Shown here in pieces: positions 11,839-63,998 of a DNA stretch of 64,000 bases; position 1 is the stretch's first letter; each line of letters begins with the position of its first letter. The DNA is from a virus: the IMG/VR virus record IMGVR_UViG_3300042539_000280, positions 1-64,000 of that record, one strand, 5' to 3'. A program made the position numbers and the translations under genes. Under the pieces are notes generated by a model. The model ran no database searches and was not told the origin of the DNA. It saw only the letters and a list, made by a program, of their open reading frames with translations.

Positions 11839-12174
11839 TTATCCAATCAACCAATATGTTCCGTTAGAAAATACAGGAACGGCATTTGAACCACCACCAA
11901 ATACTCTTGTATTGAAAGTTGTATTATTCGCATCAGTAACAAATGAACGAGAACCTAAAGTAGGTGAAGGAAGAACCGCAACCGTATTGGGTCTCGAATA
12001 TTGTGTGCCTACCGTATCGACATTGAAAACTGTATTACCGTCTACACTAAAATTCAATACTTTTGAATTGGTATTAGCGCCATATCCAAGAGTAGAAATG
12101 GACATAGAAATAGCATTATATACGTTGCTATTGGACATCCAAACTTGTGTCATATTTGCAATTGATACTGTCAT
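11839..12174 (-). CDS. Small Asn-rich virion-type protein (tail-fibre C-terminal module-like)
   Basis: C-terminal TVAVLPS...SFVTDA...GGGSNAVPVFSNGTYWLIG resembles a recurrent phage fibre end module. Confidence 0.6.
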   Translation of the reverse strand: MTVSIANMTQVWMSNSNVYNAISMSISTLGYGANTNSKVLNFSVDGNTVFNVDTVGTQYSRPNTVAVLPSPTLGSRSFVTDANNTTFNTRVFGGGSNAVPVFSNGTYWLIG

Positions 12175-12890
12175 ACTGTTATCACCGATGCTGTTAGATT
12201 TTGTGTTGGATATAAATTGAAATAATCGTCAATAACTATATATTGGCCGTCATCTTGAACAAGAGCGTTAGTAACAGTATCCACGGCAGGATAACTATAT
12301 TCATATGAAACAACTCTACTGTCAATAACATTAGAAAACGAAAACGTTACACCCGACGTTTGCCCCGTTACGGTTGTACCTGCTGTGATTGGTGTGCCTT
12401 GCATGTTATTCAATTGTGCAACGGCAGCACCACCACCTATCTGTGTAAAGTTTTGTACCGTACCTATAATCTGGCCTGCAACTGATACCAATTCACCTAT
12501 TTGCAGCGGATTGAATCCTATAATTTGACCTAATCCACCAAGAATAGGTTGCATCATACCTAGACCGGCCATACCTGATCCCATACCAATCATCACATTA
12601 GGCGAACCCATTATAGGTATAGGCAAACCTTGAACATGAGGTATAAGACCCAACACATCTGGTGATGCCATACTAACAATTGAAGGAATAGCAGGTATGC
12701 CGCCGATCATTACATTGTGTTGTAATACATTTATAAGCATACCCAAATTGTTATGTGTATCTCTATCACCTTCTACTGCGGGAACCATATTGTTTATTTT
12801 GATAGGAAGCGCAGAGGCTAATCCTGGTACAGTAATACCACCACACATTCTCATAGCATATGATAGACAAAGGTGAATTGGAAATGTCAT
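12171..12890 (-). CDS. PAAR-like spike-tip protein with C-terminal extension
   Basis: IKINNMVPAVEGDRDTH, NVMIGGIPAI, GSPNVMIG repeats. Confidence 0.55.
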   Translation of the reverse strand: MTFPIHLCLSYAMRMCGGITVPGLASALPIKINNMVPAVEGDRDTHNNLGMLINVLQHNVMIGGIPAIPSIVSMASPDVLGLIPHVQGLPIPIMGSPNVMIGMGSGMAGLGMMQPILGGLGQIIGFNPLQIGELVSVAGQIIGTVQNFTQIGGGAAVAQLNNMQGTPITAGTTVTGQTSGVTFSFSNVIDSRVVSYEYSYPAVDTVTNALVQDDGQYIVIDDYFNLYPTQNLTASVITV

Positions 12891-13552
12891 GCTTTCTTCT
12901 TAGGTCTCCCCGGTCCCTTTTTCTTTACAACCGATTTAGATACTTCTTCTTTGGTAACTGATCTTCTATGATTAGATGTCTTTGCTGCTCTCTTTACAAA
13001 ATCAGGAATCTCAGGTTCTTTGATATTTAGAGTGATTGTGCCTGCACTCTCGGTAATGCCAGTTGAACCCATACCACCTGTGCGGTCAGTCTTGAGAATA
13101 GGTCTGACAGCGGTTTCTACGATATCAAAATCTTCGTCTTTGACTAACTCAGCTTGTGCAATACGGTCACCACCACTAATAGTAATAGGATTTCCACTAA
13201 TATTGTAAACAAGTACCATTACCTCCTGAACATAGTCGGAATCAATAACACCCTCGGCATTAGCAAGTACCAGGCCTTGCTTCAAGGACGCACCGGAACG
13301 GGCGTGGAGACGCACCGAGTAACCCTTTGGTATGTCCATGATCAAACCAGTTGGCACCATAATCCTATCGCCTGGCTGAACAATAATCTGATTGTTCATA
13401 GGACGTTTGAAGTTCTTATTGTTGGTGCTATAACCTTCATAGTTACTCTTACCGAATCCTTGAAAGGATAGGTCAAAACAAGCCGACTGTGCCGTTTGCT
13501 TTTGTGGGAGTTTTATCATGGAATGTGTTCTATAAATTTTCAATGTAGTCAT
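12887..13552 (-). CDS. dut: Trimeric dUTPase with basic C-terminal tail
   Basis: SACFDL, ARSG, GVIDSDY, GDRIAQ, RTGGMGSTG. Confidence 0.93.
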   Translation of the reverse strand: MTTLKIYRTHSMIKLPQKQTAQSACFDLSFQGFGKSNYEGYSTNNKNFKRPMNNQIIVQPGDRIMVPTGLIMDIPKGYSVRLHARSGASLKQGLVLANAEGVIDSDYVQEVMVLVYNISGNPITISGGDRIAQAELVKDEDFDIVETAVRPILKTDRTGGMGSTGITESAGTITLNIKEPEIPDFVKRAAKTSNHRRSVTKEEVSKSVVKKKGPGRPKKKA

Positions 13553-13567
13553 AACAAACTCACTTTC

Positions 13568-15695: not shown

Positions 15696-15701
15696 TCACC
15701 T

Positions 15702-16690: not shown

Positions 16691-16799
16691 TATAGACCCC
16701 CATATCCAATACCACAATGCTTCTGCTTTGCGGTCTGCTTTGTTTCAAGTAGTTCAATAACCTTCAATAGAAGGCTTACCATATAACGATCATCAAACA

Positions 16800-19039: not shown

Positions 19040-19044
19040 AAACG

Positions 19045-26352: not shown

Positions 26353-28059
26353 GGTGCTAAAGTTCTTTACCTTCTCGAAACGGATAGTTCTTTGGAATCT
26401 ATCGATCATTGTGTCCTTATGGGAAATGACAAAGATATTTGTTCCTTTATCACCCATTTCCCACATGATCTTGATAAACTCGTCCGTTCCTGCACCATCC
26501 ATTGCTCGGTCTAGGATTTCGTCAAACACTAGAATGTTGACGTTGACCGAGTTTTTCATCTTGGCAATCTGTCTCCATGTTAGAAGAATAGCCAAGTCAA
26601 TTCTTAGCTTCTCTCCTTCCGAGAAGTTGTGGTAAGAGAACTCGTCTCGGTATCTGGACTTGATGGATTCTTCGAAGGATTCGTTAATATTGAAGTTGAC
26701 AAAGAAACCCAGTTTTGCCAGGTATTTGTTGATGTGCTTGTTGATGATAGGAAGATATTGTTTAATAATCTTCGTCTTGATTCCACCATCTTTGAGTAGA
26801 GTAGTTGCGAGGTCGATGTATTGTCTATCATCTAAAAGGGTCTCCTTCTCCGTTTGTAGGGAGGAAATATCATGTTCCACTGTTTCGAGTTGTCGTTCTG
26901 ACTCTTGGGTGGTCTTATCTGACCCAGCGAAGGATTCAATCTGCTCAATAACTTGGCGCAGATTATTAGCAATATGGTTATAGGAAGACTTAGCAGATGA
27001 AAGACCCATTTTGAGTTCGTTGATCTTTGTGAGAACTTCATCAATCTTCTCAATCTCTGATAGAACTGTGTCTATCTGCTCGGAAACCTTATTTAGTCCA
27101 TCCTCAATTTCTGTAATCTTCTGAGTGTTAGTTGAAACCGCCTCACTCTTGAATGATTCTCCAATAGTTTGCCGGCAAGTAGGACAAGTATCATTCTCCT
27201 CAAAGAACGAATTATCTTTGCGTAAACGTTCAACGTTATTCTCCATCTTGGCCTTGAAACCAATGAGTTTGGAATGCTTTGACTTTAGAGGTGTAAGGTC
27301 TAGGTCTTCCTCCATTGCCTTTTCAAGCAACACCTTATGATTTGAAACACCAATGTCGGCCGATTTGAGGTCGAGTTCCAGATCATCTTTCTTGGTCTGT
27401 AATTCTTTTAACTTTTCTTCGCTGTTGGCCTTCAAGGACTTTAGTGTCTGTTCAATATAGGTCTTATTCTCTTCCTTGCTAGTCAACTGAATACGGTTCT
27501 TCTCAAGGCCTTCTCTATTCATTTGGAGGCGGTTCTTGACCACTGTAGACATGGCAGAGAAGATTTGAATATCAAGCAAGTCCTCGATGACCGCACGACG
27601 GTCACCTGGTGACAACTGCATGAAAGGCACAAACGAGGCCGATCCTAGAATGACCACCTGTGTAAAGGACTTATAGTTCATTCTTAGGATATGCTTTTCA
27701 AGGTATTCTTGATAGTCTTTGGCCGCAGCATCTTGATTGACCATATTACCTTCACAATAGATTTCGAAGATATTAGGTTTGGTACCACGGATAATTCTGT
27801 ACCGCTTGTTATTGGAACTAAACTCAATCTCAACCGCACAGTTCTTACCGTTGACCGAGTTTACCACATTACCTTTGTTCACCTTACGAAAAGGTTTACC
27901 GAACAAGGCAAAAGTCAATGCGTCGAGGAAGGTTGACTTCCCCGACCCATTGTGTCCCATAATAAGGGTATTCTTGTGTGTATCTAGTTCAATTTCTGTC
28001 CACTGATTACCTGCGGACAGAAAGTTCTTCCACTTGACATAATGAAAAGTTATCATCAA
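26335..28059 (-). CDS. gp46: Recombination endonuclease ATPase subunit (Rad50/SbcC-like)
   Basis: [18 protein letters not shown] zinc hook, [20 protein letters not shown]. Confidence 0.96.
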
Positions 28060-36724: not shown

Positions 36725-38116
36725 TTAGGTTAGGTTTCTTACACGGAAGATGCGGTAATAGATGTTTGTGTTATTACCTGAGTTGGCCTCACGACCAGCA
36801 ACAACACCGTCACCAGCAGCGGTAGCAAATGGGTTTGCAACCATGCCGTAACGAGTCTTGAAGCCAATCTTTGGCTGGAAGGTATCCTGACCGATTGCAC
36901 GAACCATCTGTAGTGGAACGTATGGGCAGTAGAATAGACCAGCGTCAAATGGTGACTGACCACGGTAACCAACGGTTACTAGTTCGTCGCCGTTTGCTGA
37001 ACCACCGAAGTAAGGATCGATGTAAACCTTGATACGACCATGTAGCATACCAACGAAGGTGTTGCCTGTATCGTCAACGGTTAGGTCGGCAGATAGGGCT
37101 GGTGTATAAGAAAGAACACCGGCCATTGCCATGGCGGATGCAACGTCTGATGAAACGATCAGAACGTTACCCTTACCACGACGGGTTGCCTTGGCGATAG
37201 CGTTGGCTTCACGTTCGATGTGGAAGATTAGGCCCTTGAACTTTTCAACTGACCAACGACCGTTTGAGTCGGTGTCTAGATCGAAAGTACCGGCAGTTGT
37301 AACACCATACTGGGCACCAACTGTAGCAGAACGATAAATTGTGCGGATAACCTCACGATTGATTTCAGCAAGAATCTCTGTGGAGAGAATGTTTGCTAGT
37401 TCTGTTTCTGCGTCAAGACCGTGGATTGCCTTTAGGTCCTGTGCAAGTTCAGTGGTGTATTCTGCCTTTAGCGCACGGCTACGAGCAGTAACAGTTACCT
37501 TGTCAATGTTGAATGCCATTTCAGCAAATGCGTTAGAAGCGGCATCGCCTAGTGCTTCTGCCTGTGCTGTGGTCATACCACGGCCAACACCAAATGCAGT
37601 ACCGTCGCCAGATAGGTCGGCAACTGGGTTGTTGTTAGCGGAGTCACCGAATGAGGTGTTTGCCCATGCGGTACCAGCATCACCACCGGTGTTACCAGCA
37701 GCGTTCTTGGAAGAAAATGCGGTATTTGCTTCGAAGAATAGTGCTTCACCTGTAGTGCCTGCACCCTGTGCCTGCTGCTGCTTATAACGTGAACGCATAG
37801 CAAAGATTAGTCCTGTTGGACCAGTCATTGGCTGAACGCCACAAACGTCATAAGCGATTAGGTTTGGAAGCGCACGACGAACTAGGGAGATAAGAATTGG
37901 GTCGTATGAACCAATTGCAGTACCAGTACCTAGGCCACCACCAGCGTTTGTTGGTGCTGCTTCGTTTAGTGTGCGGGCTTCCTCAGCCATTGCCTTTTCT
38001 TGGTTCTCAAGGATAACGGCAGTGACCGCACGGCGGTATGGATCCTTGATCTGGGTGAGACCGTCGTGGTCAAGAACTGGTGACCACTTGGACTCTAGTT
38101 GTTCTGTAAGATACAT
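36725..38116 (-). CDS. gp23: Major capsid protein
   Basis: GVQPMTGPTGLIFAMR, SRALKAEYT.ELAQDLKAIHGLDAE, FYCPYVPL, FQPKIGFKTRYG. Confidence 0.99.
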   Translation of the reverse strand: MYLTEQLESKWSPVLDHDGLTQIKDPYRRAVTAVILENQEKAMAEEARTLNEAAPTNAGGGLGTGTAIGSYDPILISLVRRALPNLIAYDVCGVQPMTGPTGLIFAMRSRYKQQQAQGAGTTGEALFFEANTAFSSKNAAGNTGGDAGTAWANTSFGDSANNNPVADLSGDGTAFGVGRGMTTAQAEALGDAASNAFAEMAFNIDKVTVTARSRALKAEYTTELAQDLKAIHGLDAETELANILSTEILAEINREVIRTIYRSATVGAQYGVTTAGTFDLDTDSNGRWSVEKFKGLIFHIEREANAIAKATRRGKGNVLIVSSDVASAMAMAGVLSYTPALSADLTVDDTGNTFVGMLHGRIKVYIDPYFGGSANGDELVTVGYRGQSPFDAGLFYCPYVPLQMVRAIGQDTFQPKIGFKTRYGMVANPFATAAGDGVVAGREANSGNNTNIYYRIFRVRNLT

Positions 38117-46759: not shown

Positions 46760-48445
46760 TTAGAATTTACCGACGATTTCGGAGAAAGCAACTCCGGTGC
46801 TGACCGCTACGAAGTTCAACTGGATGAAGTTGATTGAGCGGGCTGGCTTGATGTAGATATCACCAACGAAGCGGTTGCTGTCGATGACCTCTGGTGTATT
46901 GTTTGTTTCGTCACAAACTACCTTATAATCAAAAATACCACGACGGCCCTTGACATCACGGAGGAATGGTTCTACTAGAGCAACAAACTGTGAACGGGTA
47001 AATTCATCGTTGAACTCGAATAGAGAATACTTGGCGGCCTTGGAAATTGACTTTTCAAGGGTAATGAATAGGCGACGAACGTTGATACGATCAAATGCCG
47101 ATGGCTTGTTGGTCATTGTCTTATCGCCGTATAGAACTGTTCCTAGACCCTGCATTGTTACAACTGGGTTGATGGAGTTCTTGTATAGGTTATCACGATC
47201 TGTCTGGTTTGGTGACCATGCAAGTTGTGTAACATTCTTGACTAGACCACGATTTAGACCTGCTGGTGAGAACCATGGATCTCTTGCCATGTCTGTGTAT
47301 GCACATAGACCTGCAATGTCACCGTTTAGTGGAACCCAACGATATACCTTGTTATACTTGTCAAACTGCTTCTTCCAACCAGAATCCATAACGGCATAGT
47401 TAGATGGGTTATAGTTTTCTTTGGTTGCAATAATAGCAAGTGTTTCACCACCTTGATTGTTTACAACATCGTCCATTTGTGGAGATAGGAATGTAACAAG
47501 ATCTTTTCTTGATTCAGCAATATTATCGACAACATATTCCGCAACTGTTGAATCATGTGGACCAGTCATTAGTAGTGAAACATCAACTTTATCGATATTG
47601 TTGAATAGATCATAAGCCTGTGTTAGATCACCAGTGGTTGGTGTACCAACTGAACCACCAGATAGTCTTGATGTTACTGTATTGGCAGTATCAAATGTGG
47701 TTGTTAGTGATTCGGAACCCCAATTGGTAACGTCAGCAGGATGCTTTAGAATGTAAAGATACTGTGATCTATCTTCGATTACGTTTACATAGTAGTTAGA
47801 AGAACCATCATCGTTCTTAGCATCAGATGCCTTAGAAACGTATGAGAATTTTTCTAGGATTGTGTTTGGAACACCAGTAAACTTACCACCAGCGTCAACA
47901 ACGATAATGTGCATTTCGTCGTTAGCACCTTGACGATCTTCGGTCCACTTTGATGTGCCTGTTGGACCATTGAAGTTTGGTGAATATTCCCACTGAGCAA
48001 ACTTTGTGGTATTTGCGGAAGAGAACATTGAAACTTTGATGCTATTACCTAGTTCACCAGGATAACGTGCAGCAAATGGGCCAGTATTTGCGGATGCTGA
48101 TAGATCCTTATACTGTAGGTCATAAACGTCTTGGTTCTGAATGACGATATTATCGACACCACCAGTAGCGTTATTTGCCTTAGTTAGATCAGCAGCACGA
48201 ACCAACTGTAAGTTCTGTGCATATGAAAGAAAGTTTGCAGCGGTAAAGAATGATGTAAATGTGTTCTGGCTTGGCTTACCGAACCATCTAACAAGTTCTA
48301 CCTCGTTAGAAATGGTCATAACCTTGTTTACAGGACCCCAATCAAAGTCGCCGGCAAAACCTCCTGCTGTAGTGGATAGTGATGGTACGATTGTAGTCAG
48401 ATCAATTTCGGACCAAATCACTCCAGGGGAAAGTTGATATGCCAT
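46760..48445 (-). CDS. gp18: Tail sheath protein
   Basis: SPGV..SEID, WGP, PWFSPAG, AFDRINVRRLF, IKPARSINFI. Confidence 0.97.
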   Translation of the reverse strand: MAYQLSPGVIWSEIDLTTIVPSLSTTAGGFAGDFDWGPVNKVMTISNEVELVRWFGKPSQNTFTSFFTAANFLSYAQNLQLVRAADLTKANNATGGVDNIVIQNQDVYDLQYKDLSASANTGPFAARYPGELGNSIKVSMFSSANTTKFAQWEYSPNFNGPTGTSKWTEDRQGANDEMHIIVVDAGGKFTGVPNTILEKFSYVSKASDAKNDDGSSNYYVNVIEDRSQYLYILKHPADVTNWGSESLTTTFDTANTVTSRLSGGSVGTPTTGDLTQAYDLFNNIDKVDVSLLMTGPHDSTVAEYVVDNIAESRKDLVTFLSPQMDDVVNNQGGETLAIIATKENYNPSNYAVMDSGWKKQFDKYNKVYRWVPLNGDIAGLCAYTDMARDPWFSPAGLNRGLVKNVTQLAWSPNQTDRDNLYKNSINPVVTMQGLGTVLYGDKTMTNKPSAFDRINVRRLFITLEKSISKAAKYSLFEFNDEFTRSQFVALVEPFLRDVKGRRGIFDYKVVCDETNNTPEVIDSNRFVGDIYIKPARSINFIQLNFVAVSTGVAFSEIVGKF

Positions 48446-50190: not shown

Positions 50191-50590
50191 ATTTTTCTGC
50201 TCTATATCCTTTATATGTCCATCCGTGTATTAGATTGGATTGACCATATTTCAAATCATTGTCTCTACAGAATTGAGAGAGGTTTACTATTATTTCTGTT
50301 TGACCATCAGGATAAGTTATAATCCATTTTGAACTTTTGTTCATGGCCTTTTTATATTTATGCTCGGCCGACTGTTTATGACCTTTTTTCTTAGGTTTTC
50401 TCAAAGCCTGCTTATGCTTTTCGGACTTTGGTTTACCTGTAAGGGATTTACGAATGGCATCTTTGGTTTCATCTGTATGTCTTATAGGTATGTAATCCAT
50501 AGGAATACAGTTACTATAATCATCGTAGTCAATAGGATGATCTGGTGGAAGAATATTGAGTGCTTCTGATAGAGGACAATAAATAGACAT
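50171..50590 (-). CDS. NUMOD3-repeat DNA-binding protein (homing-endonuclease derivative, no evident nuclease domain)
   Basis: HTDETKDAIRKSLTGK, KSEKHKQ, QSAEHK; C-terminal NLSQFCRDN...KGY; GGAG Shine-Dalgarno before 50590. Confidence 0.7.
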   Translation of the reverse strand: MSIYCPLSEALNILPPDHPIDYDDYSNCIPMDYIPIRHTDETKDAIRKSLTGKPKSEKHKQALRKPKKKGHKQSAEHKYKKAMNKSSKWIITYPDGQTEIIVNLSQFCRDNDLKYGQSNLIHGWTYKGYRAEKYGQITV

Positions 50591-50653
50591 GCTGGCGCTC
50601 CTGTTTAGCGTTAGAGTCCGTGGGAGGTGGTGCTCCGTGACGGACATTCCTAT

Positions 50654-52233: not shown

Positions 52234-53583
52234 TTATCCTTTGTTTATTTTAGATGACAACTCATTTATGGCTTCGATTAGTAGAGGAACAACTCTTTCA
52301 TATCTAACTGCTTTTGTTCCATCTGGTCTTGTAATAACGGCCTCTGGTAGTACCTTTTCTAATTGTTGTGCAAGGACACCAACATCATGTTTTCTAATAA
52401 AGTAGTCATCAAGACCTCCATGATTGTTGATATATTCTTCTGACCAATCGAACTCAACACCTGTAATTGAGTTTACTTTTTCAAGTGCATTAGGTATTTT
52501 TGTTACGTTTTCTTTGAATCTTTCGTCAGATGTAAAGAATCCGGAAATGTCACCATATGTTCTGATATCACCGGATGATGTAATTTTTCCTTGAACAGTG
52601 ACATTAGATGAAATGTGTGCGTTGCCGGTATTTGCATAAATGCTGGATAGAACTGTGCTTCCTGATGCATTATAGAAATAAAGATAGGAAATACCAGATG
52701 CAGGGTTTGCCTTGATCTTTACAGTTTTGCCAAAAGTAGCACCATTAGAATCCAGAATATGTGAACCAGATGCAAATGTGCTTGTACCATAAACTACAAG
52801 ATTACCTTCTGCGGTAAATGTTCCAGTTGATACACCATCTACAGTATTGATTTTGGAATTTGCTGTACCAAATGCGGCATTTACTACAGTATATGCGGAG
52901 TTTATCTTGAAGAATCCAGCATTAGCAGCACCATAAGCAACATTGGTAACATTATAGGATGAATTAGCAACTCTATATGATGCCGTGGTATTTGTAGAAA
53001 CACCATTAGCAAATACAAAGGCAGCGGATGCATTGACGCCTGCACCAAGAGCAAGTATTGTGCCTACATTTGCCTGACTCCACGCCAAATCGGATCTGAC
53101 ATATGCAGCATTGGCCTGATCAAAACCTGCCGCAGCATTTCCATCTACTACTGATAGAATAGCATTGATTGTATTAGCAATACCACTAAGATTTAGAATT
53201 AGATTGATAGCAGTATTAGTTGCGGTATAATATGAGAAGAATGTGGTATTGACCGTATTGGCAAGGTCAAATGCGGCTTTAGCATTAGCAGCAGCACCAT
53301 TTACTGTATTAGCAATTTGTGTGGCAGCCTGGGCCGAACCAAGAACAAGATTAGCATATCCATATGCATCATTGGCAACATCAAATGCGGATGATGTTAG
53401 AAATAGAAGATCACCATCAGTAGTATCGACTACGGTAATAAGATTAGCAAGGTTTGAAGTAACATTGCTTACATTATTATAAAGTTCATTGAAGTTGTTA
53501 CTTGCTTTACCGAACGCATTTCTTAGCGTATCACCGGTACCATCATTAGCATTTGTTCCAATGTTGATTGTCTGTTTTGCCAT
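52234..53583 (-). CDS. Tail/collar fibre with gp9/gp10-like N-terminus and C-terminal S74 intramolecular chaperone
   Basis: INIGTNANDGTGDTLR; SDERFKEN, GVEFDW, GVLAQQLE, LLIEAINEL. Confidence 0.85.
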   Translation of the reverse strand: MAKQTINIGTNANDGTGDTLRNAFGKASNNFNELYNNVSNVTSNLANLITVVDTTDGDLLFLTSSAFDVANDAYGYANLVLGSAQAATQIANTVNGAAANAKAAFDLANTVNTTFFSYYTATNTAINLILNLSGIANTINAILSVVDGNAAAGFDQANAAYVRSDLAWSQANVGTILALGAGVNASAAFVFANGVSTNTTASYRVANSSYNVTNVAYGAANAGFFKINSAYTVVNAAFGTANSKINTVDGVSTGTFTAEGNLVVYGTSTFASGSHILDSNGATFGKTVKIKANPASGISYLYFYNASGSTVLSSIYANTGNAHISSNVTVQGKITSSGDIRTYGDISGFFTSDERFKENVTKIPNALEKVNSITGVEFDWSEEYINNHGGLDDYFIRKHDVGVLAQQLEKVLPEAVITRPDGTKAVRYERVVPLLIEAINELSSKINKG

Positions 53584-53612: not shown

Positions 53613-54620
53613 TTATAATTCTGTTTCTGGCCATTCGGTGACTTCAATATTATAACCATAATCATCGGTAGGTTGTGCCGTTGATGGATCTGGAGTAATT
53701 ACTATCTCTGCAAGTTTCATTGATATGACATAGAATGAATCTAATGTGCATACGCCGTTTGTAGATAATGCATGAATTTCAGTATTTACCTTGAATGTTC
53801 CTTGAACCGCACCAATCACCATCTGATCTAAATCGGAGTTATATTTGACAACCGAACCATATGCAGTAGCAGTCTGATATGTATTACCCTGATAGACCAT
53901 ATCATCTACTTTGAATACACCATTAGCATTGGCCACATTTATTCTGGCAATGTAACCAGACTGTAATGCAGGATCGTTGTAAATGTTGGTGTAGATAGAA
54001 CGAATGATCTTTGGATATGAGATTGGACCATAGTAATACATCTTCATGGTAAAGTTTAGTGTCCAATTGACATATCTTACTGAATCATAATCACCCTCAT
54101 ACTGAATATCATTAGAGACATTGTTGAGAATGATTGGAACGTCCTTATACATTCCTAGATCAGGAATCATATTAGTGGTAACTGTAAAGTCAGGATTGAA
54201 GAACGGTAAAATCTGCTCTACAATATGGGTACCGTCGTCAATGTTTCTTGTATAAATATTCAATTGAAAATTGATATCATACGGAACACCCATATAAGAC
54301 GCCGAAACATGAGTAGTGGTATTCGATCTTGCGGCCTTTAGTAATGAGTTTTGTTTGCGAGAGGCATCATAGGTAATACCAGTAATCTCGAAACCCATTC
54401 TTGGTAGCATAACCTGAATTTGTCTTAGCAAATCTGGATCAGAGAAGATACGAGTAACCATCTTCTCTTTTGGTGAATAAACCAAAGGAACACGAAAGCG
54501 ATTGACCTCCTCACCGGACTGGTCATTCTTTCTAACTACAATGATATCATCAAACAAACGGCCGAATAGAACGACCGCCTTACGAGTAAGTTGATGATAG
54601 AATGGACTATTACCTAACAT
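53613..54620 (-). CDS. gp15: Tail sheath stabilizer/completion protein
   Basis: FGRLF, VPLVYSPKEK, LPRMGFEI, IVEQILPFFNP. Confidence 0.95.
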   Translation of the reverse strand: MLGNSPFYHQLTRKAVVLFGRLFDDIIVVRKNDQSGEEVNRFRVPLVYSPKEKMVTRIFSDPDLLRQIQVMLPRMGFEITGITYDASRKQNSLLKAARSNTTTHVSASYMGVPYDINFQLNIYTRNIDDGTHIVEQILPFFNPDFTVTTNMIPDLGMYKDVPIILNNVSNDIQYEGDYDSVRYVNWTLNFTMKMYYYGPISYPKIIRSIYTNIYNDPALQSGYIARINVANANGVFKVDDMVYQGNTYQTATAYGSVVKYNSDLDQMVIGAVQGTFKVNTEIHALSTNGVCTLDSFYVISMKLAEIVITPDPSTAQPTDDYGYNIEVTEWPETEL

Positions 54621-55517
54621 TTATGGTGTTCCAAATGGATTGAACTCGGACAAATCTAAAATCTCTCCGGCATCGGTGTTTAGTTGTTTGTTGTCGAACA
54701 TATCATATTCCGACAAATCTGAGATTGTATCGACATTGATAGTAGTATAAATGGCATTACTGGTATTACCAATTATCGTATAGTTATTAGTAAACTGACC
54801 AACAATGTTATAGAGTTGCAATGTATTATTAGATGCAAACCACTGTTTGACAGTTGCCTGTGCATATGCAGAATTTATATTACTGTTAGATGACTGATAT
54901 ACAGTTTCACCCATAAAGTAATCGATGGGTGAAATATTTGCAGAAGGTACAAGATTGATATTGATTGTATAAAGATTGTCTGTACCTACCTGATCAACTT
55001 CATCAATACCAGTAGCAATCTGTTCCTGAGAAGCACGGAAGGCCTCACATTTCAATTCATACACATAAGGTAGTTTCTTACCGATTTGGTGGAACATAAC
55101 TTCATGTTCAACAAACTTTACTTCAAACATTTTATGAAGAATAGGAACATAGACAAGATCACCTTCTTGTGGTCTTTGTCTAATAGAACCAGGCATAATG
55201 CTACGGAATGATCTGCGTGATATAACAAAGTTATCGTTGTCTCTAATCTCTAAACCAAACTTAGAGAAAAAGTCTTGCTGTCCTTCGTGCCCACCAACAT
55301 TCAATAGATATGCCTCAATTAGATAGGCCTTCTTGAATGCCGAGTTTTTATATTCACCAAAGATCATATCACCTTCATCAAATGATTCTCTTGGAATATA
55401 ATAAACGTTGTGACCCATAATCTGGATGGATTCAACAATAAGGTCTTCCATCAACAAATGTTCATTGTTGATTCTTTCTTGTGACGGATAATTGTTGAAA
55501 TAACGGTTGACTGCCAT
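54621..55517 (-). CDS. gp14: Neck protein
   Basis: ESIQIMG..YYIPR, SKFGLEIRD, PQEGDLVY, SEFNPFG. Confidence 0.95.
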   Translation of the reverse strand: MAVNRYFNNYPSQERINNEHLLMEDLIVESIQIMGHNVYYIPRESFDEGDMIFGEYKNSAFKKAYLIEAYLLNVGGHEGQQDFFSKFGLEIRDNDNFVISRRSFRSIMPGSIRQRPQEGDLVYVPILHKMFEVKFVEHEVMFHQIGKKLPYVYELKCEAFRASQEQIATGIDEVDQVGTDNLYTININLVPSANISPIDYFMGETVYQSSNSNINSAYAQATVKQWFASNNTLQLYNIVGQFTNNYTIIGNTSNAIYTTINVDTISDLSEYDMFDNKQLNTDAGEILDLSEFNPFGTP

Positions 55518-56307: not shown

Positions 56308-56928
56308 CTACCGAAACTTAGGACCCTCTACCCATATCACAATTGATTTACGAACACCTGATAAAACAGGGGTCACACGATGAATCATAAATGAAGGAAA
56401 AGCAATAATAGTTCCTCTTTCCATACAAATTGTCAAAGGATTTTTTTCTTGCCCGGTATTTATTTGAAAATCACCACCTTCAAATTCATTTCTATCATTC
56501 AAAAGCATAACAAGTGTAAGTTTTCGGGTATCAAGCATTTTCATAACAGGTTCTAATTCATAACCAAGTACCGTATCACCGTGCCAATCATATTTACCTT
56601 GTTCATTTCCATTATACACTGTATATTGAATAGTATTATATCCATGCAGATCGAATTGATAAAACTGATCATTTATGGATTCAATCACATTATTATAGGT
56701 ATCAAATATCCAGGATGTTTCATCATTTCTTTCGAAAAATTTAATATCCGAAACTCTGACCGATCCATCTACTGTCTGTCCGTTTTCTTTTACAACTCCA
56801 CCTCTATACAAATCAAATTTACTACACATATTTTCAAAATGATCTAATTGGACGTTGGTAAAAGCATCTTTCCACCACACATAAAATGGTGTTATTCTTC
56901 TTCTAGTAAAGGTATCATTATGTATCAT
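56308..56928 (-). CDS. 2OG-Fe(II) oxygenase (PKHD-type), AT-rich
   Basis: QYTVY, YDWHGD, RKLT, FEGGDF, FPSFMIHRVTPV, RKSIVIW. Confidence 0.9.
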   Translation of the reverse strand: MIHNDTFTRRRITPFYVWWKDAFTNVQLDHFENMCSKFDLYRGGVVKENGQTVDGSVRVSDIKFFERNDETSWIFDTYNNVIESINDQFYQFDLHGYNTIQYTVYNGNEQGKYDWHGDTVLGYELEPVMKMLDTRKLTLVMLLNDRNEFEGGDFQINTGQEKNPLTICMERGTIIAFPSFMIHRVTPVLSGVRKSIVIWVEGPKFR

Positions 56929-57487: not shown

Positions 57488-58840
57488 TTAGACTTGTCCG
57501 CCATTAATTGTACCTGCATTTATATATGTGATGTTGGTAGTACCAGAAACACCACTACCAATACCACCTGCTTGTCCAGACAGACCAATACCACCTGCTT
57601 GTCCAGACAGACCAATACCACCTGGTTGTCCAGACAGACCAATACCACCTGGTTGTCCTGCTAATCCCGTTAGACCAATACCGCCAGGTTGTCCTGCGGT
57701 ACCAATACCACCTGCAACACCACCACCGCCGCCGGCGAATATAGGACCGTTGACACCGGCGTTACCGCCTTGACCAATTGAACCACCTCGACCACCTGGG
57801 CCGGCAGGAACACCGCCGCCTGAACCGCCTGCTCCGCCAGCGCCGCCTGTATTTCCTAATCCAGCTTGGCCAACTTGTCCTGGAGATGCAGGTGGACCAT
57901 ATGGTCCAAACGGCGAAAGGGCGCCGCCGGCACCTACAGGAGATCCACCACCGCCGCCGCCGCCGCCGCCGCCGTATGAATATGAACCGCCACCGCCGCC
58001 GCCACCGCCGCCTCCGCCGCCAGCAGCACCACCGGCGCCGCCGCGTCCGCCGGGCCCGCCTGGACCACCAATTCCTCCTCGACCACCAGTGCCACCTGCG
58101 CCGCCTGGGCCGCCTGGGCCGCCGGCGCCGCCTGGCCCACCTGATCCTCCGGGACCACCGGTTCCGCCAGTAATAGTTGTTGTATTATTCAATAGAATTT
58201 TTATTCCTGAAATAGTATCTGCTCGAAAAGCCACACCTCCAGATTGACCGTTATTTCCTACACCGCCGATGCCGCCGTTATTTCCTACACCGCCGATGCC
58301 GCCGTTATTTCCTACACCGCCGATGCCGCCGGCATTTCCTACACCGCCGATGACTCCTATTAGACCATTATTTCCTCTACCTCCGATGCCTCCAGCGCCG
58401 CCCGCTTGTCCTGCACCTCGACCGCCGCCGGCGCCGGCACCACCTCTGCCGCCTGCACCGGATGCACCAGGTTGTCCGGCGGTCCCGGCGGCACCAACAC
58501 CACCTACGGTACCATTTGCACCAGGATTTCCTGTATTACCAGCGGCACCAACACCACCTACGTTACCTGCGGCTCCGGGGTTACCTACTGTTCCTGATGC
58601 ACCGACAGCACCAGTAATCGTGGCAGCATTTTTGATATACAGTAGCGAACCTCCCTTCCAGGATGTTCCTGTTCTAAATGCTGGTGTTGCAACGGAAGAA
58701 CTACCAATGTTGGCATTGATAAAACAAAGTAAGTTTAGAGGGTATGCTGGGCTACCCGATGTAGAATAAAGATCGACATTGTTAGTTGCTGCCGAGAGAG
58801 TTACGATCTTAGTTGGTCTAAGAATAGGAAATAACATCAT
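57488..58840 (-). CDS. gp38-like polyglycine adhesin with long Gly-X-Y strands
   Basis: LYIKN..TITG, LLNN..TITGG, GGGGGSPVGAGG, C-terminal ITYINAGTINGGQV; local GC much higher than flanks. Confidence 0.75.
   Translation of the reverse strand: MMLFPILRPTKIVTLSAATNNVDLYSTSGSPAYPLNLLCFINANIGSSSVATPAFRTGTSWKGGSLLYIKNAATITGAVGASGTVGNPGAAGNVGGVGAAGNTGNPGANGTVGGVGAAGTAGQPGASGAGGRGGAGAGGGRGAGQAGGAGGIGGRGNNGLIGVIGGVGNAGGIGGVGNNGGIGGVGNNGGIGGVGNNGQSGGVAFRADTISGIKILLNNTTTITGGTGGPGGSGGPGGAGGPGGPGGAGGTGGRGGIGGPGGPGGRGGAGGAAGGGGGGGGGGGGSYSYGGGGGGGGGGSPVGAGGALSPFGPYGPPASPGQVGQAGLGNTGGAGGAGGSGGGVPAGPGGRGGSIGQGGNAGVNGPIFAGGGGGVAGGIGTAGQPGGIGLTGLAGQPGGIGLSGQPGGIGLSGQAGGIGLSGQAGGIGSGVSGTTNITYINAGTINGGQV
57557..57658. 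repeat. 27-bp coding tandem repeat (about 4 copies; GGIGLSGQA/P)
   Basis: accaataccacctg(c/g)ttgtccagacag at 57557, 57584, 57611, 57638. Confidence 0.9.
58248..58352. repeat. 27-bp coding tandem repeat (about 4 copies; GGIGGVGNN)
   Basis: ccgttatttcctacaccgccgatgccg x3 plus a variant copy. Confidence 0.9.
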
Positions 58841-58867: not shown

Positions 58868-61800
58868 TTATCTACAATCAGGAATATATGTACCGTAAAG
58901 GTTTGTACCATCGCACCAGAATGAGAATACGTCAGTGGTTGATGCGGTAGTTGATAATGTTGGTGCTACTGCGGCAGGCCACTTGAATACCGATCCCCAT
59001 GTGGTGATGGTTTTAGAACCTACGCCATCCTGCTTACATATGAATATATAGGAGCCAGCCTTTAGATTGGTTGGGTTTGCCATTGTTCTACCGGTACCAG
59101 ATAGTGTCACGGTTGCCATTCTTGATGTTGATGCATCCCATGAGATTGTACCAGAGGCATCGGACAATGAGGTTACGGTCATTGACTGTGCGGCCAGGCC
59201 GGTATTGAATGGGGAATAGCTAGAAACCGCACCAGCAGTATCGGCATAACCAGCAGAGATTTTCTGCCAAGAACCTAAAGCATTAGCTTCATTATATCTG
59301 ATGGCAAGGTAAGGTGTGGATACGTTTCTTGGAATAGCAAGTTGCATACCATACGAACCAGCACCAGTGGCTGCATAATCGTTGCCTAATCCAATATATA
59401 AACTATAATATTGGCCGGCACCGTTTACACCAGGTCCGTTAGTTGATCCTTGAACAAATCTCCAACCAAAATTATAAGATGGTGTTGTGGCATCAAATGC
59501 TGTTCTTGTGCTGTGATTATCGCCCATGTTATTGAAAACACGGTGTTCATCGGTAATGTTATCAATAGATGCAGAGAGTGTACCACCAAGTGTCAAACTG
59601 CCTGTTGATGTTACTGTTCCTGTAAGAGTTAGTCCGGAAACCGTACCAGTGCCGGAGACAGAGGTAACACCAGATGATGTGACATAACCAGCAGATCCGG
59701 TAACAGATGTTACACGACCATAGGCATCGACTGTAATAGCGGAAATACCGGAAGAATACGATGCTGCGCCAGCACCTGCTGTTGCCAAATCAACTGTGAT
59801 TGCTGTGGTGCCGGTCGATGTAACACGTCCTGATGTACCAGAAACAGTTGCAACCTTTGTACCAGCAACCGCATTGGCAGCATTGGCCATGACACCAGCA
59901 TAGTTATTTGCTGCCGTAGTTGATGTATTGGTATAGGCGTTAGCGGCACCAGTCGAGGTATTCACATAAGCATAATCCATACCAGAAACGGCAACGTTTG
60001 ATGCGCCGGTGATGCGACCATATGCGTCTACAGTAAGAACTGGAATCTGTGTGGCGCCGCCGTATGTGGTAGCAGTTACACCAGAGGTTGAAAGGTCAAG
60101 ATAGACAGTTTCGATACCACTGACACTAACAGTATTGGCCCAAACTCTTGCCGTGCTATTACTTGTAACAGAGGAAACTTTGGTATTTGACCAATCATTA
60201 GCAGATGACACAGAAGTATTGGTATATGCTCTGGCAGTTACCAGGTTAGCATCTACAATGGTCTGTGTCCAGGCATTACCGGAGTTAGCCATTGCACCGG
60301 CATAGTTGTTAGCAGAAGTAACATCAGTATTGGTTGCAATGTCATACCAGGTAGTACCATCTTCTGTGAGAGTCCATGTATCTGAACCTTCTCTCCATAG
60401 AATGGACACATTAGCGGAAGAACCACGTTTGATTTCAATACCAGCATCTTCCGATGGTGCCACCGCAGCAGGAATATCATTATTGAGTGTAATGATACTA
60501 TCACCAATCAATAATGTCTGTGTATTGGCATAAGTTGTATTACCAGAAATGGTAAGATTGCCTTGAATAACAAAATCACCAGTAACGGTATCTCCGGCCT
60601 TCTTTAGATAAGTTGATCCTGCATATGTGTTAGCATTATTAGCAACCACGCCGGCCTGGTTAGCAGCGGCAAATGCCGCATTGGCAATAACACCTGCTTG
60701 GTTGGCAGCACCAAAGGCACCATTCGCAACAGTACCAGCACCATTGGCCATTACACCAGCATAGTTATTAGATGATGTTCCAACGACTCCTGCATAAGCA
60801 TTGGCACCAATACCTGTGTTATAAGCCAAGACGTTTGCGGAGTTGGCCTTATCAAAGGCAGCATTGGCAACAGTATAGGCGTCATTAGCCTTATTGAAAG
60901 GAGGAGATAAGTCTGGTGTCAGTGAAGAAGCATAAGCATTGGCGGCGTTTGCCATGACGCCGGCATAATTGTTAGCAGAAACGGCAGTATTTGCTAAATC
61001 GCTTGATACTGTGTTTGCCTTATCAAATGCTGCATTAGCAACCACATAACCAGCATTTGAAGAAGTATATGCGGCATTTATAACACCAAAGGCACTGTTG
61101 ACTGCTGCATAAGTTGTATTGGAGTGACCAAAGGCAGCAACAGCATTTGTAGCAGGCCCTGTGTTATTTTCATTGACATTTTCAAATCTACCGTTAGCGG
61201 AAACATAACGAATCAAATCGCCGTTAGTAAGTGATCCGTTGAAGTGTGCTAATTCGTCGTCAGCAAGTGATGAACCACGCTGAACCGCAGCAAAGATCAT
61301 GCCTACTGTGGAAGACTTAGTAATAACAGTACCAATTTGCACTTTATTGTTTGGAGCAGTTGGTTTGGTATTCTGTAATGCACCAGGATTTGATGAACTT
61401 ACATAAAGGATATCACCTTCACTAAACATACTGGTATCGATCTTACGAACTTTACCAAATGTTGTGACAAAACCTTCTTCGCCGTTCGGAATATCTTCTG
61501 TAGCAATACCAAGAATATACTTAGAGTCATATGAGTTATTAGCAATGGCACGACGGACAGTTAGTTTACCAGAATTTCCTACTGTAGAAAGATACGCAAC
61601 TGCATTGGAATTGTAAATAGTTTCCCCGGACTGATTCAATACTCTATAGTATTGCTCTTGACCAAGTTGCAATATAGACTCACCTGTACCAACATCAAGT
61701 GTTTTGTCGTCTGGATTCCAAGTTACTTGGCCTTCTACAACCTGACCGTTAGCAGCAGTTAGAGAAGTTGTGTCAAAGAAAATACTATTGACACCTGCAA

Positions 61801-62632
61801 GGTTATCCCTAATGTTTAGTGTACCGTCGAATATAACACCATCGGTATTAGCAAGTTTGGTGTTTGCCCATCCATTAGCAGAGTTGGACATAACACCAGC
61901 ATAGTTATTGGATGCCTGTGTAGAAACGTCCGTATAAGCATTAGCACCAATACCGGTATTATATGCAAGTAAATTGGCAGCATTGGCCTTATAATATGCT
62001 GCATTAGCAGTATCATATGACGACTCAATGAATAGAATATCGTTGGAAAGATTAGCACGATCAAATGCTGCCTGGGCTAATGTTAGAGTTGCATTAGCAT
62101 TTGTATATGCTGAATTTGCTACGGTATATGCAGCATTGGCAGTATTGAAAGCAGGTGATAAATCTGGTGTCAGTGAAGATGCATAAGCATTGGCAGAATT
62201 TGCCATCGCACCGGCATAGTTATTTGCGGCAGTAGTAGAAACATCCGCATATGCATTAGCACCAATACCTGTATTATAAGCAAGGACATTAGCAGAGTTG
62301 GCTTTATCAAAAGCAGGTTTTAGATTAGCAGTAATAGTAAAAGAATCGGTAAAAATATCGGCAGATAATTCAATATTATCACCTTTATCAATAGTAAGAT
62401 AGTCACCCGAGGTATCAGCAACGAGTAGTGATCCGGCGACGTTTACTACGCCAAAACTATCAGCACCTCCGCCGCCGCCACCTCCGCCAGCAACTTGGAC
62501 GATATGTGAGGTTAGATTTTTATAATAAAGTTTACCATCCGCATAGTTGATGGCAAGTTCACCATATTCTAGCGTAGATGGAACTTCATTAGGTGTAGAT
62601 GATTTCTTGAGTTTGATTACTGTGTTTGCCAT
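58868..62632 (-). CDS. Long modular tail fibre protein
   Basis: GELAINYADGKLYYK N-terminus; ANxY helical repeats; TVDAYGR repeats; KQDGVGS...FKWP..VAPTLST C-terminal module. Confidence 0.85.
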   Translation of the reverse strand: MANTVIKLKKSSTPNEVPSTLEYGELAINYADGKLYYKNLTSHIVQVAGGGGGGGGADSFGVVNVAGSLLVADTSGDYLTIDKGDNIELSADIFTDSFTITANLKPAFDKANSANVLAYNTGIGANAYADVSTTAANNYAGAMANSANAYASSLTPDLSPAFNTANAAYTVANSAYTNANATLTLAQAAFDRANLSNDILFIESSYDTANAAYYKANAANLLAYNTGIGANAYTDVSTQASNNYAGVMSNSANGWANTKLANTDGVIFDGTLNIRDNLAGVNSIFFDTTSLTAANGQVVEGQVTWNPDDKTLDVGTGESILQLGQEQYYRVLNQSGETIYNSNAVAYLSTVGNSGKLTVRRAIANNSYDSKYILGIATEDIPNGEEGFVTTFGKVRKIDTSMFSEGDILYVSSSNPGALQNTKPTAPNNKVQIGTVITKSSTVGMIFAAVQRGSSLADDELAHFNGSLTNGDLIRYVSANGRFENVNENNTGPATNAVAAFGHSNTTYAAVNSAFGVINAAYTSSNAGYVVANAAFDKANTVSSDLANTAVSANNYAGVMANAANAYASSLTPDLSPPFNKANDAYTVANAAFDKANSANVLAYNTGIGANAYAGVVGTSSNNYAGVMANGAGTVANGAFGAANQAGVIANAAFAAANQAGVVANNANTYAGSTYLKKAGDTVTGDFVIQGNLTISGNTTYANTQTLLIGDSIITLNNDIPAAVAPSEDAGIEIKRGSSANVSILWREGSDTWTLTEDGTTWYDIATNTDVTSANNYAGAMANSGNAWTQTIVDANLVTARAYTNTSVSSANDWSNTKVSSVTSNSTARVWANTVSVSGIETVYLDLSTSGVTATTYGGATQIPVLTVDAYGRITGASNVAVSGMDYAYVNTSTGAANAYTNTSTTAANNYAGVMANAANAVAGTKVATVSGTSGRVTSTGTTAITVDLATAGAGAASYSSGISAITVDAYGRVTSVTGSAGYVTSSGVTSVSGTGTVSGLTLTGTVTSTGSLTLGGTLSASIDNITDEHRVFNNMGDNHSTRTAFDATTPSYNFGWRFVQGSTNGPGVNGAGQYYSLYIGLGNDYAATGAGSYGMQLAIPRNVSTPYLAIRYNEANALGSWQKISAGYADTAGAVSSYSPFNTGLAAQSMTVTSLSDASGTISWDASTSRMATVTLSGTGRTMANPTNLKAGSYIFICKQDGVGSKTITTWGSVFKWPAAVAPTLSTTASTTDVFSFWCDGTNLYGTYIPDCR

Positions 62633-63195
62633 TAAAAGTCGTCATTCTCGTCTTCCGGCTGATCATTTGCCACAGGAGCATTTTCAACCTCGGTTGTCTT
62701 TTTCTTATTTATAACTTTTTTAGGAGGCGGAATTAGTTGTGTGAGTTTGACGATTTCGGCCTCCTTTTCAGAAAGTCGGCCTGTCATAGTGGCATTTTCT
62801 AATTTTAGTTTTTCAGTCTCATTTTTCAGATTTTGAAGTTCATTCTTTAGAGTATCATATTCATTGTTCTTAGTCAACAATGCTTGTTTAATTTCATTCA
62901 TCTGTGAGGTCAAAGCATCCATATGTGAGACTTTATTTTTTATAGCCTCATATGATGCCTTTATATTATCTGCTTCCTCAACACTTTTCTCAACACTTTT
63001 GGTTAGTCCCGACGCCGTATTCTTACATTCGTCCAACTGCTCCTGGAGGGATGCTATCAAAGCATCCTTCTCAGGAACAATTTCTGTAGCGAGTCTTAGT
63101 TGAGTTCTCAACTGTAATATTGTTGACACTTGATCGTGGATCATACCCATTGCATGATCAACATATGCATTTATATACTTTTGTGGGTCACTCAT
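62632..63195 (-). CDS. Coiled-coil protein
   Basis: Long heptad pattern; coupled to the fibre gene. Confidence 0.65.
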   Translation of the reverse strand: MSDPQKYINAYVDHAMGMIHDQVSTILQLRTQLRLATEIVPEKDALIASLQEQLDECKNTASGLTKSVEKSVEEADNIKASYEAIKNKVSHMDALTSQMNEIKQALLTKNNEYDTLKNELQNLKNETEKLKLENATMTGRLSEKEAEIVKLTQLIPPPKKVINKKKTTEVENAPVANDQPEDENDDF

Positions 63196-63218
63196 ATTCT
63201 AATTCTCCAATATTACTG

Positions 63219-63998
63219 TTAGAAATTACCTCCGTCGAGCATTCCAAACTGTGGAACACCAGAACTATTCACTTGTAAGACATTACCTTCGGTACCAGCG
63301 GCGGTAACCTTTAGATCACCCGATGTATTACCGAATAGGATACCGTTTTCGGTGAATGAAGTCTGACCTGTGCCGCCGTATGGGACTTTGACTACGCCGG
63401 TGCTGATATAAGAACCATTAGCAGCATTTGTATTAGCGGCACCGCCAACAACATCAGCATATGCATTGGCCGATGTTCCTACGGAGTTAGCAAATACTCT
63501 TGTATAAGCATTAGCAGAGTCACCAACTACCTGTGCATATGCATTACCGGATGAACCGACAACTACTGCATAAGCATTGGCCGCTGCTCCAACAAAATCA
63601 GCGTAAGCATTGCCTGACTGTCCTACTGTTACAGCATAAGCATTGGCCGCATTTGCCATGAATCCTGCATAATTATTTGCTGATGATCCAACCGAGTCTG
63701 CATAACCATTTGCAGAGTTGGCCATAACACCGGCATAACTATTTGCAGAAGTTGTAGCTGTCTCAACATCTGTATTGGATGCGATATTTAGATAGGTAGA
63801 ACCGTCATTTGTAAAGGTCCACTTTTCTGATGTTTCATTCCATAGAACAGAAACGTTAGCGGATGAACCACGATTGATTTCCATACCTGCATCTTGTGTA
63901 GGTGCTGTAGCACCATCAAGATCGGAATTTAGAACAAAGATATTATCGCTAACAAGTAGTGACTGGGTATTGACATATGTAGTCGTGCCAGTAACAGT
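63219..63998 (-). CDS. Tail fibre protein, C-terminal part (runs off right edge)
   Basis: Frame open to the window end; DAGMEINRG module, SANAY repeats, YGGTG, LDGGNF terminus. Confidence 0.8.
   Translation of the reverse strand, partial: TVTGTTTYVNTQSLLVSDNIFVLNSDLDGATAPTQDAGMEINRGSSANVSVLWNETSEKWTFTNDGSTYLNIASNTDVETATTSANSYAGVMANSANGYADSVGSSANNYAGFMANAANAYAVTVGQSGNAYADFVGAAANAYAVVVGSSGNAYAQVVGDSANAYTRVFANSVGTSANAYADVVGGAANTNAANGSYISTGVVKVPYGGTGQTSFTENGILFGNTSGDLKVTAAGTEGNVLQVNSSGVPQFGMLDGGNF

Follow-up and report, generated by a model that had tools for sequence, protein, structure and literature searches.

Ala-Asn motifs in the outward-facing tail proteins of a freshwater T4-like myophage and their possible relation to a phage-encoded sugar island

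Introduction

Mycobacteriophages, siphophages of Actinobacteria, reportedly glycosylate their virions through O-linkage on capsid and tail-tube subunits, in work by Freeman et al. (2023, cited in PMC12582341). They are tailed phages with transferases of their own, and the proteins decorated there are those of the virion. A phage-encoded glycan coat was likewise put forward in the original prediction for the T4-like myophage of IMG/VR record IMGVR_UViG_3300042539_000280, a single-contig genome of 164,392 bp (CheckV completeness 94%), from its first 64,000 nucleotides, hereafter the window. In that proposal, an operon of glycosyltransferase (GT) and methyltransferase genes and an abundance of asparagine (Asn) after Ala, Ser, or Gly in structural proteins throughout the virion formed one system that coats the particle. 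Here we examine both the motif and this sugar island. The candidate sites differ from those of the mycobacteriophages in being Asn residues on the fibres and baseplate of a myophage, whereas tube and capsid are not enriched.

Three further systems bear on the locus. Chlorovirus PBCV-1 N-glycosylates its protein Vp54 with virus-encoded soluble transferases and sugar-nucleotide enzymes, the glycans including fucose and methylated sugars, at Asn residues that precede Thr and lie outside the N-x-S/T rule (PMC9614988). The window encodes a comparable soluble set, consisting of a GT2, a GT4, a GT10, a dehydrogenase, two epimerase/dehydratases, and methyltransferases, all free of transmembrane-like segments. 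However, the target in PBCV-1 is the capsid, with sites of the form NTxT or NIPG (PMC9614988), whereas the capsid of this phage resembles that of relatives without GT1/GT2-family genes, NTxT shows hardly any excess, the signal comes from the Ala before the Asn, and any glycan would be a predicted one. Pelagimyophages and cyanomyophages, T4-like phages of marine and freshwater habitats, carry lipopolysaccharide (LPS) or O-chain clusters of transferases and deoxy-sugar enzymes, which are usually read as modifying the host surface, in pelagic myophages specifically its O-chain (PMC7029224). In contrast to these, the present island combines a fixed core of three transferases at one conserved site with a late-promoter-like box and has no membrane or export component. 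Lastly, the trimeric autotransporter adhesins and the P22 tail needle have periodic Asn residues, often followed by Thr, in the heptad or hendecad repeats of fibrous trimers (PMC13580157). The fibre Asn of our phage probably flanks an Ala/aromatic core instead of occupying position d, and its motif is also found in the non-fibrous gp7, gp8, and VrlC-like proteins.

We find that the excess arises at the level of protein and is a lineage-specific mark of those tail proteins that face outward; it is seen in a freshwater T4-like lineage and in one further clade.

Methods

The gene layout of the window was based on PHROG and Pfam scans. Open reading frames (ORFs) were called genome-wide, and each protein was shuffled within itself, so that composition alone gives no signal. 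Three protein sets were scored: four fibres, 14 non-fibre structural orthologues, and approximately 125 non-structural proteins. The same orthologues were scored per genome in eleven complete T4-like genomes (pf16, Melnitz-3, S-SSM5, P-HM1, P-SSM2, phiM12, a T4-like coliphage, IME-SM1, S-B64, HTVC008M, and RHph_I46), with HTVC008M and RHph_I46 scored as pooled sets. Co-occurrence of the motif with the three-transferase core was tested on gp6, gp7, gp8, and VrlC of core-bearing and core-less genomes; the contigs G001, L097, and L098 are enriched, but their sequence stops before the island site, which places them outside this test.

Results

Asn is preceded by Ala, Ser, or Gly at 53% of its positions in the fibres, 29% in the other structural proteins, and 18% in the non-structural proteins (Fisher p 9e-27; p 3e-8 for non-fibre structural against non-structural proteins). 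When the three preceding residues were pooled in the shuffles, the few outliers were gp23 (p 0.007), two non-structural proteins with comparable p values, and the fibre-like proteins. Resolved by dipeptide, the enrichment is that of Ala-Asn alone, with observed-to-expected ratios of 2.43 in the fibres (117/48), 2.05 in the non-fibre structural proteins (86/42), and 1.01 in the non-structural proteins (109/108), the last agreeing with the predicted lack of clustering in replication enzymes. Ser-Asn (0.93, 1.22, and 1.07 for the three sets in the same order) and Gly-Asn (0.75, 0.84, and 1.01) are not enriched, which leaves only the Ala part of the predicted motif standing. Asn-Thr has ratios of 1.46, 1.51, and 0.87. 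The sharpest signal is the tripeptide Ala-Asn-Thr, with 19 sites against 5.5 expected in the fibres, 21 against 3.7 in the non-fibre structural proteins (z 9.5; about 5.5-fold), 9 against 2.1 in the latter once the gp7-like and VrlC-like proteins are removed, and 4 against 5.8 in the non-structural proteins.

Known N-glycosylation sequons are not enriched: the canonical N-x-S/T, relevant to the cytoplasmic HMW1C/NGT enzymes, has ratios of 0.72 in the fibres, 0.97 in the non-fibre structural proteins, and 0.99 in the non-structural proteins, and the bacterial D/E-x-N-x-S/T, relevant to the oligosaccharyltransferases PglB/AglB/STT3, ranges from 0.24 to 1.13 across the sets. The chlorovirus-type NTxT is weakly elevated in the non-fibre structural proteins (9 observed, 4.8 expected, z 1.9). 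At the nucleotide level, GCNAAY is nearly confined to frame 0 (counts per frame, 117/1/1 and 86/3/6) and Ala-Asn is encoded by every synonymous codon pair, which rules out a DNA-level word as the cause and therefore places the selection on the protein.

Four fibres, the gp7-like protein, and the VrlC-like protein carry the excess, with a weaker contribution from gp8 (Table 1). The portal, tube, and neck proteins and gp3, gp5, and gp25 (gp13, gp14, gp15, gp19, gp20, gp3, gp5, and gp25 pooled) contain 8 Ala-Asn where 10.2 are expected and no Ala-Asn-Thr, at odds with a virion-wide enrichment; all 21 non-fibre Ala-Asn-Thr sites fall in gp23, gp18, gp6, gp7, gp8, and VrlC. The peptides quoted in the original prediction are all present where it placed them, in gp14, gp15, gp18, and both the loop and the C-terminus of gp23, and its hand counts are right for both the 111-aa ORF and the ORF at 63219-63884 (27 Asn, 19 of them after Ala, Ser, or Gly). 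As examples of enrichment, however, gp14 and gp15 fail (Table 1), and the 111-aa ORF was ruled out of the structural count: it lies among early genes, a 131-aa plus-strand ORF overlaps it in antisense, and it has no family match and no homologue in four close relatives (G006-G009). An Asn-rich protein of 206 aa, encoded outside the window, has conserved counterparts in G001 and G007, where the enrichment is just as strong.

Of the 203 Ala-Asn sites in structural proteins, the four fibres hold 117, and there the spacing between sites peaks at 7, 14, 21, and 28 and at 8, 11, and 22 residues; the same analysis found no periodicity in gp7 or VrlC. The fibre repeat unit is roughly Ala-(Tyr/Phe)-x-x-Ala-Asn-x, as would suit a trimeric coiled coil whose small core is flanked by the Asn, the register being our assignment. 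Asn-Thr motifs at polar core layers of trimeric coiled coils are known, including in a phage tail needle (PMC13580157). The AlphaFold model of the 402-aa fibre draws the repeat stretches as long helices (residues 52-123, 211-281, and 309-343) at low confidence, its mean predicted local distance difference test (pLDDT) score being 35; at this value and the 43 of the gp7-like protein, the models are too poor for surface placement of the sites. The 1254-aa fibre is a mosaic, pieces of which match annotated tail fibres of unrelated phages, and the 449-aa fibre joins a gp9/10-like N-terminus to a Peptidase_S74 chaperone domain. The fibre share of Ala-Asn is probably structural because it is periodic, as the original prediction had cautioned for coiled-coil stalks; that caution covers the 117 fibre sites and does not extend to the excess that remains once all four fibre proteins are removed.

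Among the eleven outgroup genomes, nine lack the motif excess, phiM12 is enriched, and P-SSM2 is weakly so. Ala-Asn ratios lie between 0.81 and 1.35 in the first nine genomes listed above, with no protein reaching p<1e-3, which rules out a general trait of T4-like structural proteins, and Ala-Asn is at chance in HTVC008M and RHph_I46, which rules out an effect of alphaproteobacterial hosts. Ala-Asn-Thr is at chance in every outgroup except phiM12 (11 observed, 2.9 expected, z 4.4); the weak excess of P-SSM2 is in Ala-Asn (28 observed, 16.8 expected, z 2.85). The gp23 proteins of Melnitz, S-SSM5, P-HM1, P-SSM2, S-B64, and phiM12 have 5-8 Ala-Asn against 3.3-3.8 expected, in line with the 8 against 3.5 of this phage, and the counts in gp18, gp6, and gp8 of this phage are inside the range of relatives. 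GT1/GT2-family genes are absent from Melnitz, S-SSM5, P-HM1, S-B64, pf16, and IME-SM1. Ala-Asn in capsid and sheath is thus a family trait common to phages without such genes, and gp23 and gp18, which had been singled out as decisive by eye because they are not coiled coils, lose that role. The gp23 sites include those of a hypervariable loop, an insertion rich in Gly, Ser, Thr, Asn, and Ala at approximately residues 117-185 of the protein. The lineage-specific part of the excess comprises the fibres and the gp7-like protein and, less clearly, VrlC.

The predicted operon is real, consisting of soluble enzymes with Pfam matches behind a late-promoter-like box. Its genes are transcribed in the order GT2, a 302-aa protein with a GT-A-like lead, a 203-aa unknown protein, a TylF-type O-methyltransferase, GT10, GT4, a UDP-glucose/GDP-mannose dehydrogenase, a 2-oxoglutarate (2OG) oxygenase, an epimerase/dehydratase, a methyltransferase, a second epimerase/dehydratase, and a second 2OG oxygenase. 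The GT2 has no sequence relative in PDB; a relative is encoded on 205 IMG/VR contigs, with 56-86% identity in the 80 loci listed. The 302-aa protein, which has no Pfam or PDB match, belongs to a family restricted to phages. It is possibly a nucleotide-sugar transferase, a weak lead: its Atlas neighbours are phage clusters, one of which has PF03407 in 10% of its members. The GT10, an alpha-1,3-fucosyltransferase homologue, matches Helicobacter pylori FucT (2nzw) with E 8e-34. By Pfam, the island contains none of the components of an O-antigen-type locus (initiating lipid-carrier transferase, flippase, polymerase), although host components could still serve, and no match to GT41 (PF13844) or STT3 (PF02516) was found in the 94%-complete genome. 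The box TATAAATA precedes the GT2 gene in a genome where NTAAATA boxes stand before gp3, gp22, gp21, gp19, gp18, gp13, gp8, and gp25, 15-50 nt upstream of many structural genes. The octamer itself occurs 5 times in the window against 4.5 expected, i.e., at chance, and was therefore rejected as proof of late expression; its position is what supports it.

In G006-G009 and further IMG/VR loci, the three-transferase core is inserted at one and the same place, flanked by Hsp20 and by the gp43 side, and the order Hsp20, GT2, 302-aa protein, GT10 is fixed in these four near-complete relatives and many shorter contigs. Past the core, the sugar genes differ between close relatives in the manner of O-antigen loci (L289/L290, L294, L307, and L313 in G006-G009). 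At the far end of the island lies an ORF resembling the N-terminal and middle domains of acyl-CoA dehydrogenases, an unusual gene for a phage.

All eight core-bearing genomes (this phage, G006-G009, and G011-G013) are enriched in Ala-Asn-Thr, 3-9 fold with z 3.2-10.5, and G015, G016, and G017, in which Hsp20 lies directly next to the gp43 side, are not. A quick gp6 tree, which lacks G009 because a search for its gp6 found none, unites the other core-bearing genomes in one clade with a Shimodaira-Hasegawa-like approximate likelihood ratio test (SH-aLRT) support of 100, and the association of core and motif therefore amounts to a single evolutionary event. The sister of this clade (support 89) is G005, a 78.5-kb contig (43% complete) in which Hsp20 is next to the gp43 side and the island site is empty; it has no GT1 or GT2 gene in its 78.5 kb, and it is enriched in Ala-Asn-Thr (13 observed, 3.4 expected, z 5.1). 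phiM12 and G018 (93% complete) form a separate clade. G018 is enriched in both Ala-Asn (50 observed, 24.4 expected) and [A/S/G]-Asn-[T/S] (37 against 17), and each of the two has a lone GT1-family gene (108348-109295 of NC_027204 in phiM12; L429 in G018). P-SSM2, G016, and G017 have GT1/GT2-family genes and no enrichment of Ala-Asn-Thr or [A/S/G]-Asn-[T/S].

The expectation that the motif would co-occur with specific GT families holds for the eight core-bearing genomes and goes no further, as no transferase family tracks all enriched genomes: PF00534 is missing in G007, G008, G012, and G013; PF00535 and PF00852 have no match in G018; and PF00535 is missing in phiM12, where PF00852 was not searched. 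With two independent lineages and no single tracking family, a putative link between motif and island is neither established nor refuted by the gene content of these genomes.

Almost every gene of the window lies on the minus strand, and transcription runs from the fibre genes at the window end to Hsp20 and the island (Table 1). Further fibres, the VrlC-like protein, gp8 (30-35% identity to the nearest phage-collection records), a gp7-like protein, gp6, gp25, and gp5 lie past the window end. The collagen-like protein is 57% Ala, Ser, and Gly with long runs of Gly-X-Y triplets; its gene and, two genes downstream, that of a prolyl-hydroxylase-type 2OG-Fe(II) oxygenase sit between the fibres and gp13, and it may be a hydroxylated virion protein. 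A homing-endonuclease-like HNH gene separates the small and large terminase genes, and an AAA-type ATPase gene is placed between gp47 and gp46. Between the fibres and the VrlC-like gene, a 260-aa protein contains a series of short Gly-Asn-Ala-x-Val repeats, typical of beta-helices.

Table 1. Features of the phage genome, broadly in transcription order, with Ala-Asn counts from within-protein shuffles; positions are those of the window unless given as genome positions
Feature	Position	Strand	Basis or remark	Ala-Asn observed/expected (z)
402-aa fibre	63219..63998, to genome 64427	-	first in transcription order; crosses window end, 402 aa in full	22/7.4 (6.2)
Coiled-coil protein			next after 402-aa fibre; PHROG/Pfam layout	
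1254-aa fibre	58868..62632	-	after coiled-coil protein gene; spacing peaks at 7, 14, 21 and at 11, 22 residues	53/18.8 (9.1)
Collagen-like 450-aa protein	57488-58840	-	downstream of 1254-aa fibre	
2OG-Fe(II) oxygenase, structural module	56308-56928	-	PF13640	
gp13			PHROG/Pfam layout	
gp14	within 53613..55517	-	neck protein	1/1.3
gp15	within 53613..55517	-	neck protein	2/1.1
449-aa fibre	52234..53583	-	S74 chaperone domain; after gp15	16/7.1 (3.8)
gp16			PHROG/Pfam	
HNH endonuclease	50171-50647	-	between gp16 and gp17	
gp17			PHROG/Pfam	
gp18, tail sheath	46760..48445	-	phrog_23; three Ala-Asn-Thr sites	6/3.2 (1.7)
gp19, gp20			PHROG/Pfam	
Four unknown proteins			between gp20 and gp21; PHROG/Pfam layout	
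gp21, gp22			PHROG/Pfam	
gp23, major capsid protein	36725..38116	-	phrog_138 E 4e-158	8/3.5 (2.6)
gp3			after gp23; PHROG/Pfam	
UvsY, UvsW, gp55, gp47			after gp3; PHROG/Pfam	
595-aa AAA-type ATPase	28056-29843	-	phrog_30773 E 6e-223	
gp46			after ATPase; PHROG/Pfam	
Clamp and clamp-loader genes, RegA, dCTP deaminase-like protein, Hsp20			end of layout, before sugar island	
111-aa Asn-rich ORF	11839..12174	-	15 Asn, 8 following Ala/Ser/Gly; status doubtful	
Late-promoter-like box TATAAATA	10864..10871	-	44 nt upstream of GT2 start	
Sugar-nucleotide and GT island	1264..10819	-	Pfam matches	
GT2-family transferase, core gene 1	10067..10819	-	PF00535 E 8e-11	
302-aa phage-only protein, core gene 2	9174..10082	-	possible nucleotide-sugar transferase; always after GT2 in relatives	
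GT10 homologue, core gene 3	7133..8020	-	PF00852 and FucT_N	
2OG oxygenases of island	1264-1860; 4328-4945			
Further 2OG oxygenase	30954-31571			
Acyl-CoA dehydrogenase-like ORF	1-1029	-	island end	
682-aa fibre				(3.4)
260-aa protein	genome 67242-68024 (L001:4242-5024)		past window	
VrlC-like protein, 2110 aa			past window	(3.8)
gp8			past window	(3.1)
gp7-like protein			past window	26/7.6 (7.2)
gp6			past window	(2.3)
206-aa Asn-rich protein	genome 124459-125079		outside window	8/2.7 (3.7)

Discussion

The explanation that we prefer, with confidence that is about even, is a purely structural and surface-architectural origin of the excess, with the sugar island serving another acceptor. In the fibres, Ala-Asn would belong to a unit that repeats at intervals of 7 or 11 residues along a helical shaft; in the non-fibre proteins, a less strict motif, (Ser)-Ala-Asn-(Thr/Asn/Val), would occur in segments that vary and are specific to the lineage; the Asn would be unmodified; and the island would be a separate cytoplasmic glycan-building module whose acceptor lies elsewhere. 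The heptad and hendecad periodicity of all four fibres speaks directly to the shaft; that the motif is also structural in the non-fibre proteins, and that it has no connection with the island, is what we infer. In favor of this explanation we count the enrichment in two clades of differing transferase content together with the empty site of G005, the gp23, gp18, gp6, and gp8 counts within the range of relatives without GT1/GT2-family genes, and the combination of no GT41 or STT3 gene found with no enrichment of N-x-S/T.

Several observations weigh against it. The non-fibre Ala-Asn-Thr excess, with or without the gp7-like and VrlC-like proteins, has no structural explanation. Pooled, gp23, gp18, gp6, gp7, gp8, and VrlC have 78 Ala-Asn against 31.8 expected, in contrast to the inner parts with their 8 against 10.2, in a split that was drawn post hoc with the data already seen. 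All enriched complete or near-complete genomes have at least one GT1/GT2-family gene, and most non-enriched ones have none. The gp7 of L098, at 34% identity, has 30 Ala-Asn sites, 9 of which align with the 26 of this phage; density is kept while positions turn over, which looks like selection on the number of motifs over fixed structural positions and is more easily explained by a surface property or a modification signal, an argument weakened by alignment error in variable segments.

Such a signal would be read by the phage itself if soluble transferases made late in infection (the GT2, the 302-aa protein, the GT10, and strain-variable enzymes) attached fucosylated and methylated glycans, built in the cytoplasm, to the Asn of Ala-Asn-(Thr) in fibre and peripheral baseplate proteins, and not in capsid, sheath, or neck. 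We consider this unlikely, although much is consistent with it: an island free of flippase, polymerase, lipid-carrier transferase, and membrane proteins behind a late-promoter-like box; a core conserved across its relatives while the downstream sugar genes vary by strain; the 8/8 enrichment of core-bearing genomes in gp6, gp7, gp8, and VrlC; a second enriched clade with its own GT1 gene; a motif limited to outward parts at a density that survives positional turnover; and the precedent of NTxT sequons in the chlorovirus capsid (PMC9614988). The proposal that operon and motifs form one glycan-coating system gains from the first and third of these, from the excess that outlasts removal of the fibres, and from its absence in nine of the eleven outgroups, and is set back by the confinement of the core to a single clade and by enrichment without it. 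The association comprises two clades only, P-SSM2, G016, and G017 possess GT1/GT2-family genes without Ala-Asn-Thr enrichment, and G005 shows the enrichment while its insertion site is empty and its 78.5 kb contain no GT; NTxT itself is weakly elevated, neither a GT41 nor an STT3 gene was found, and the periodic fibre share is probably structural.

Compositional drift with module exchange, in which the fast-evolving, recombining outer tail modules of this lineage share a style rich in Ala, Asn, and Thr that spread through mosaic exchange of fibre-like segments without site-specific function, seems to us rather less probable still. The fibres are mosaics of modules common to unrelated phages, the Ala-Asn sites of gp7, gp8, and gp23 fall within segments for which distant homologues have a gap or unrelated sequence, and enrichment tracks phylogeny; yet the within-protein shuffles already correct for composition, so the excess is one of residue order, and Asn in gp7 is better conserved at Ala-Asn sites than elsewhere (77% vs 59% in G001; 65% vs 35% in L098), with the enrichment retained at 31-46% gp7 identity. 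Another Asn modification, such as beta-hydroxylation by a phage 2OG-Fe(II) oxygenase for which Ala-Asn would be the recognition element, is very improbable. Asparaginyl hydroxylases are known in this superfamily, and 2OG oxygenase genes are found in the island, in the structural module, and elsewhere in the window, but non-enriched cyanophages commonly have such families too, and the position of the structural-module oxygenase near the collagen-like gene suggests proline rather than Asn as its target.

If the Asn residues are unmodified, as the structural explanation holds, Ala-Asn clearly marks, in sequence, the tail proteins of this lineage that face outward, and it warns that small-residue-Asn motifs in fibres are largely the repeat of the shaft architecture. 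The capsid and sheath examples, decisive as they seemed by eye, are family traits found also in phages lacking GT1/GT2-family genes. The more doubtful alternative is that a freshwater T4-like clade practises cytoplasmic N-glycosylation through a phage-only core of GT2, GT-A-like protein, and GT10, giving its host-recognition apparatus a variable fucosylated and methylated coat. Were the Asn found to be modified in this way, tailed phages would have their first N-linked glycoprotein system, in which both the initiating enzyme and the sequon would be new. Such glycosylation, of a kind new to these phages, would be located on the parts that recognize the host; the widespread, phage-only trio of transferases would gain a role, and the sequon would be readable from sequence across hundreds of uncultured freshwater phages. 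phiM12, which is cultured, and G018 provide a second lineage for the glycosylation idea.

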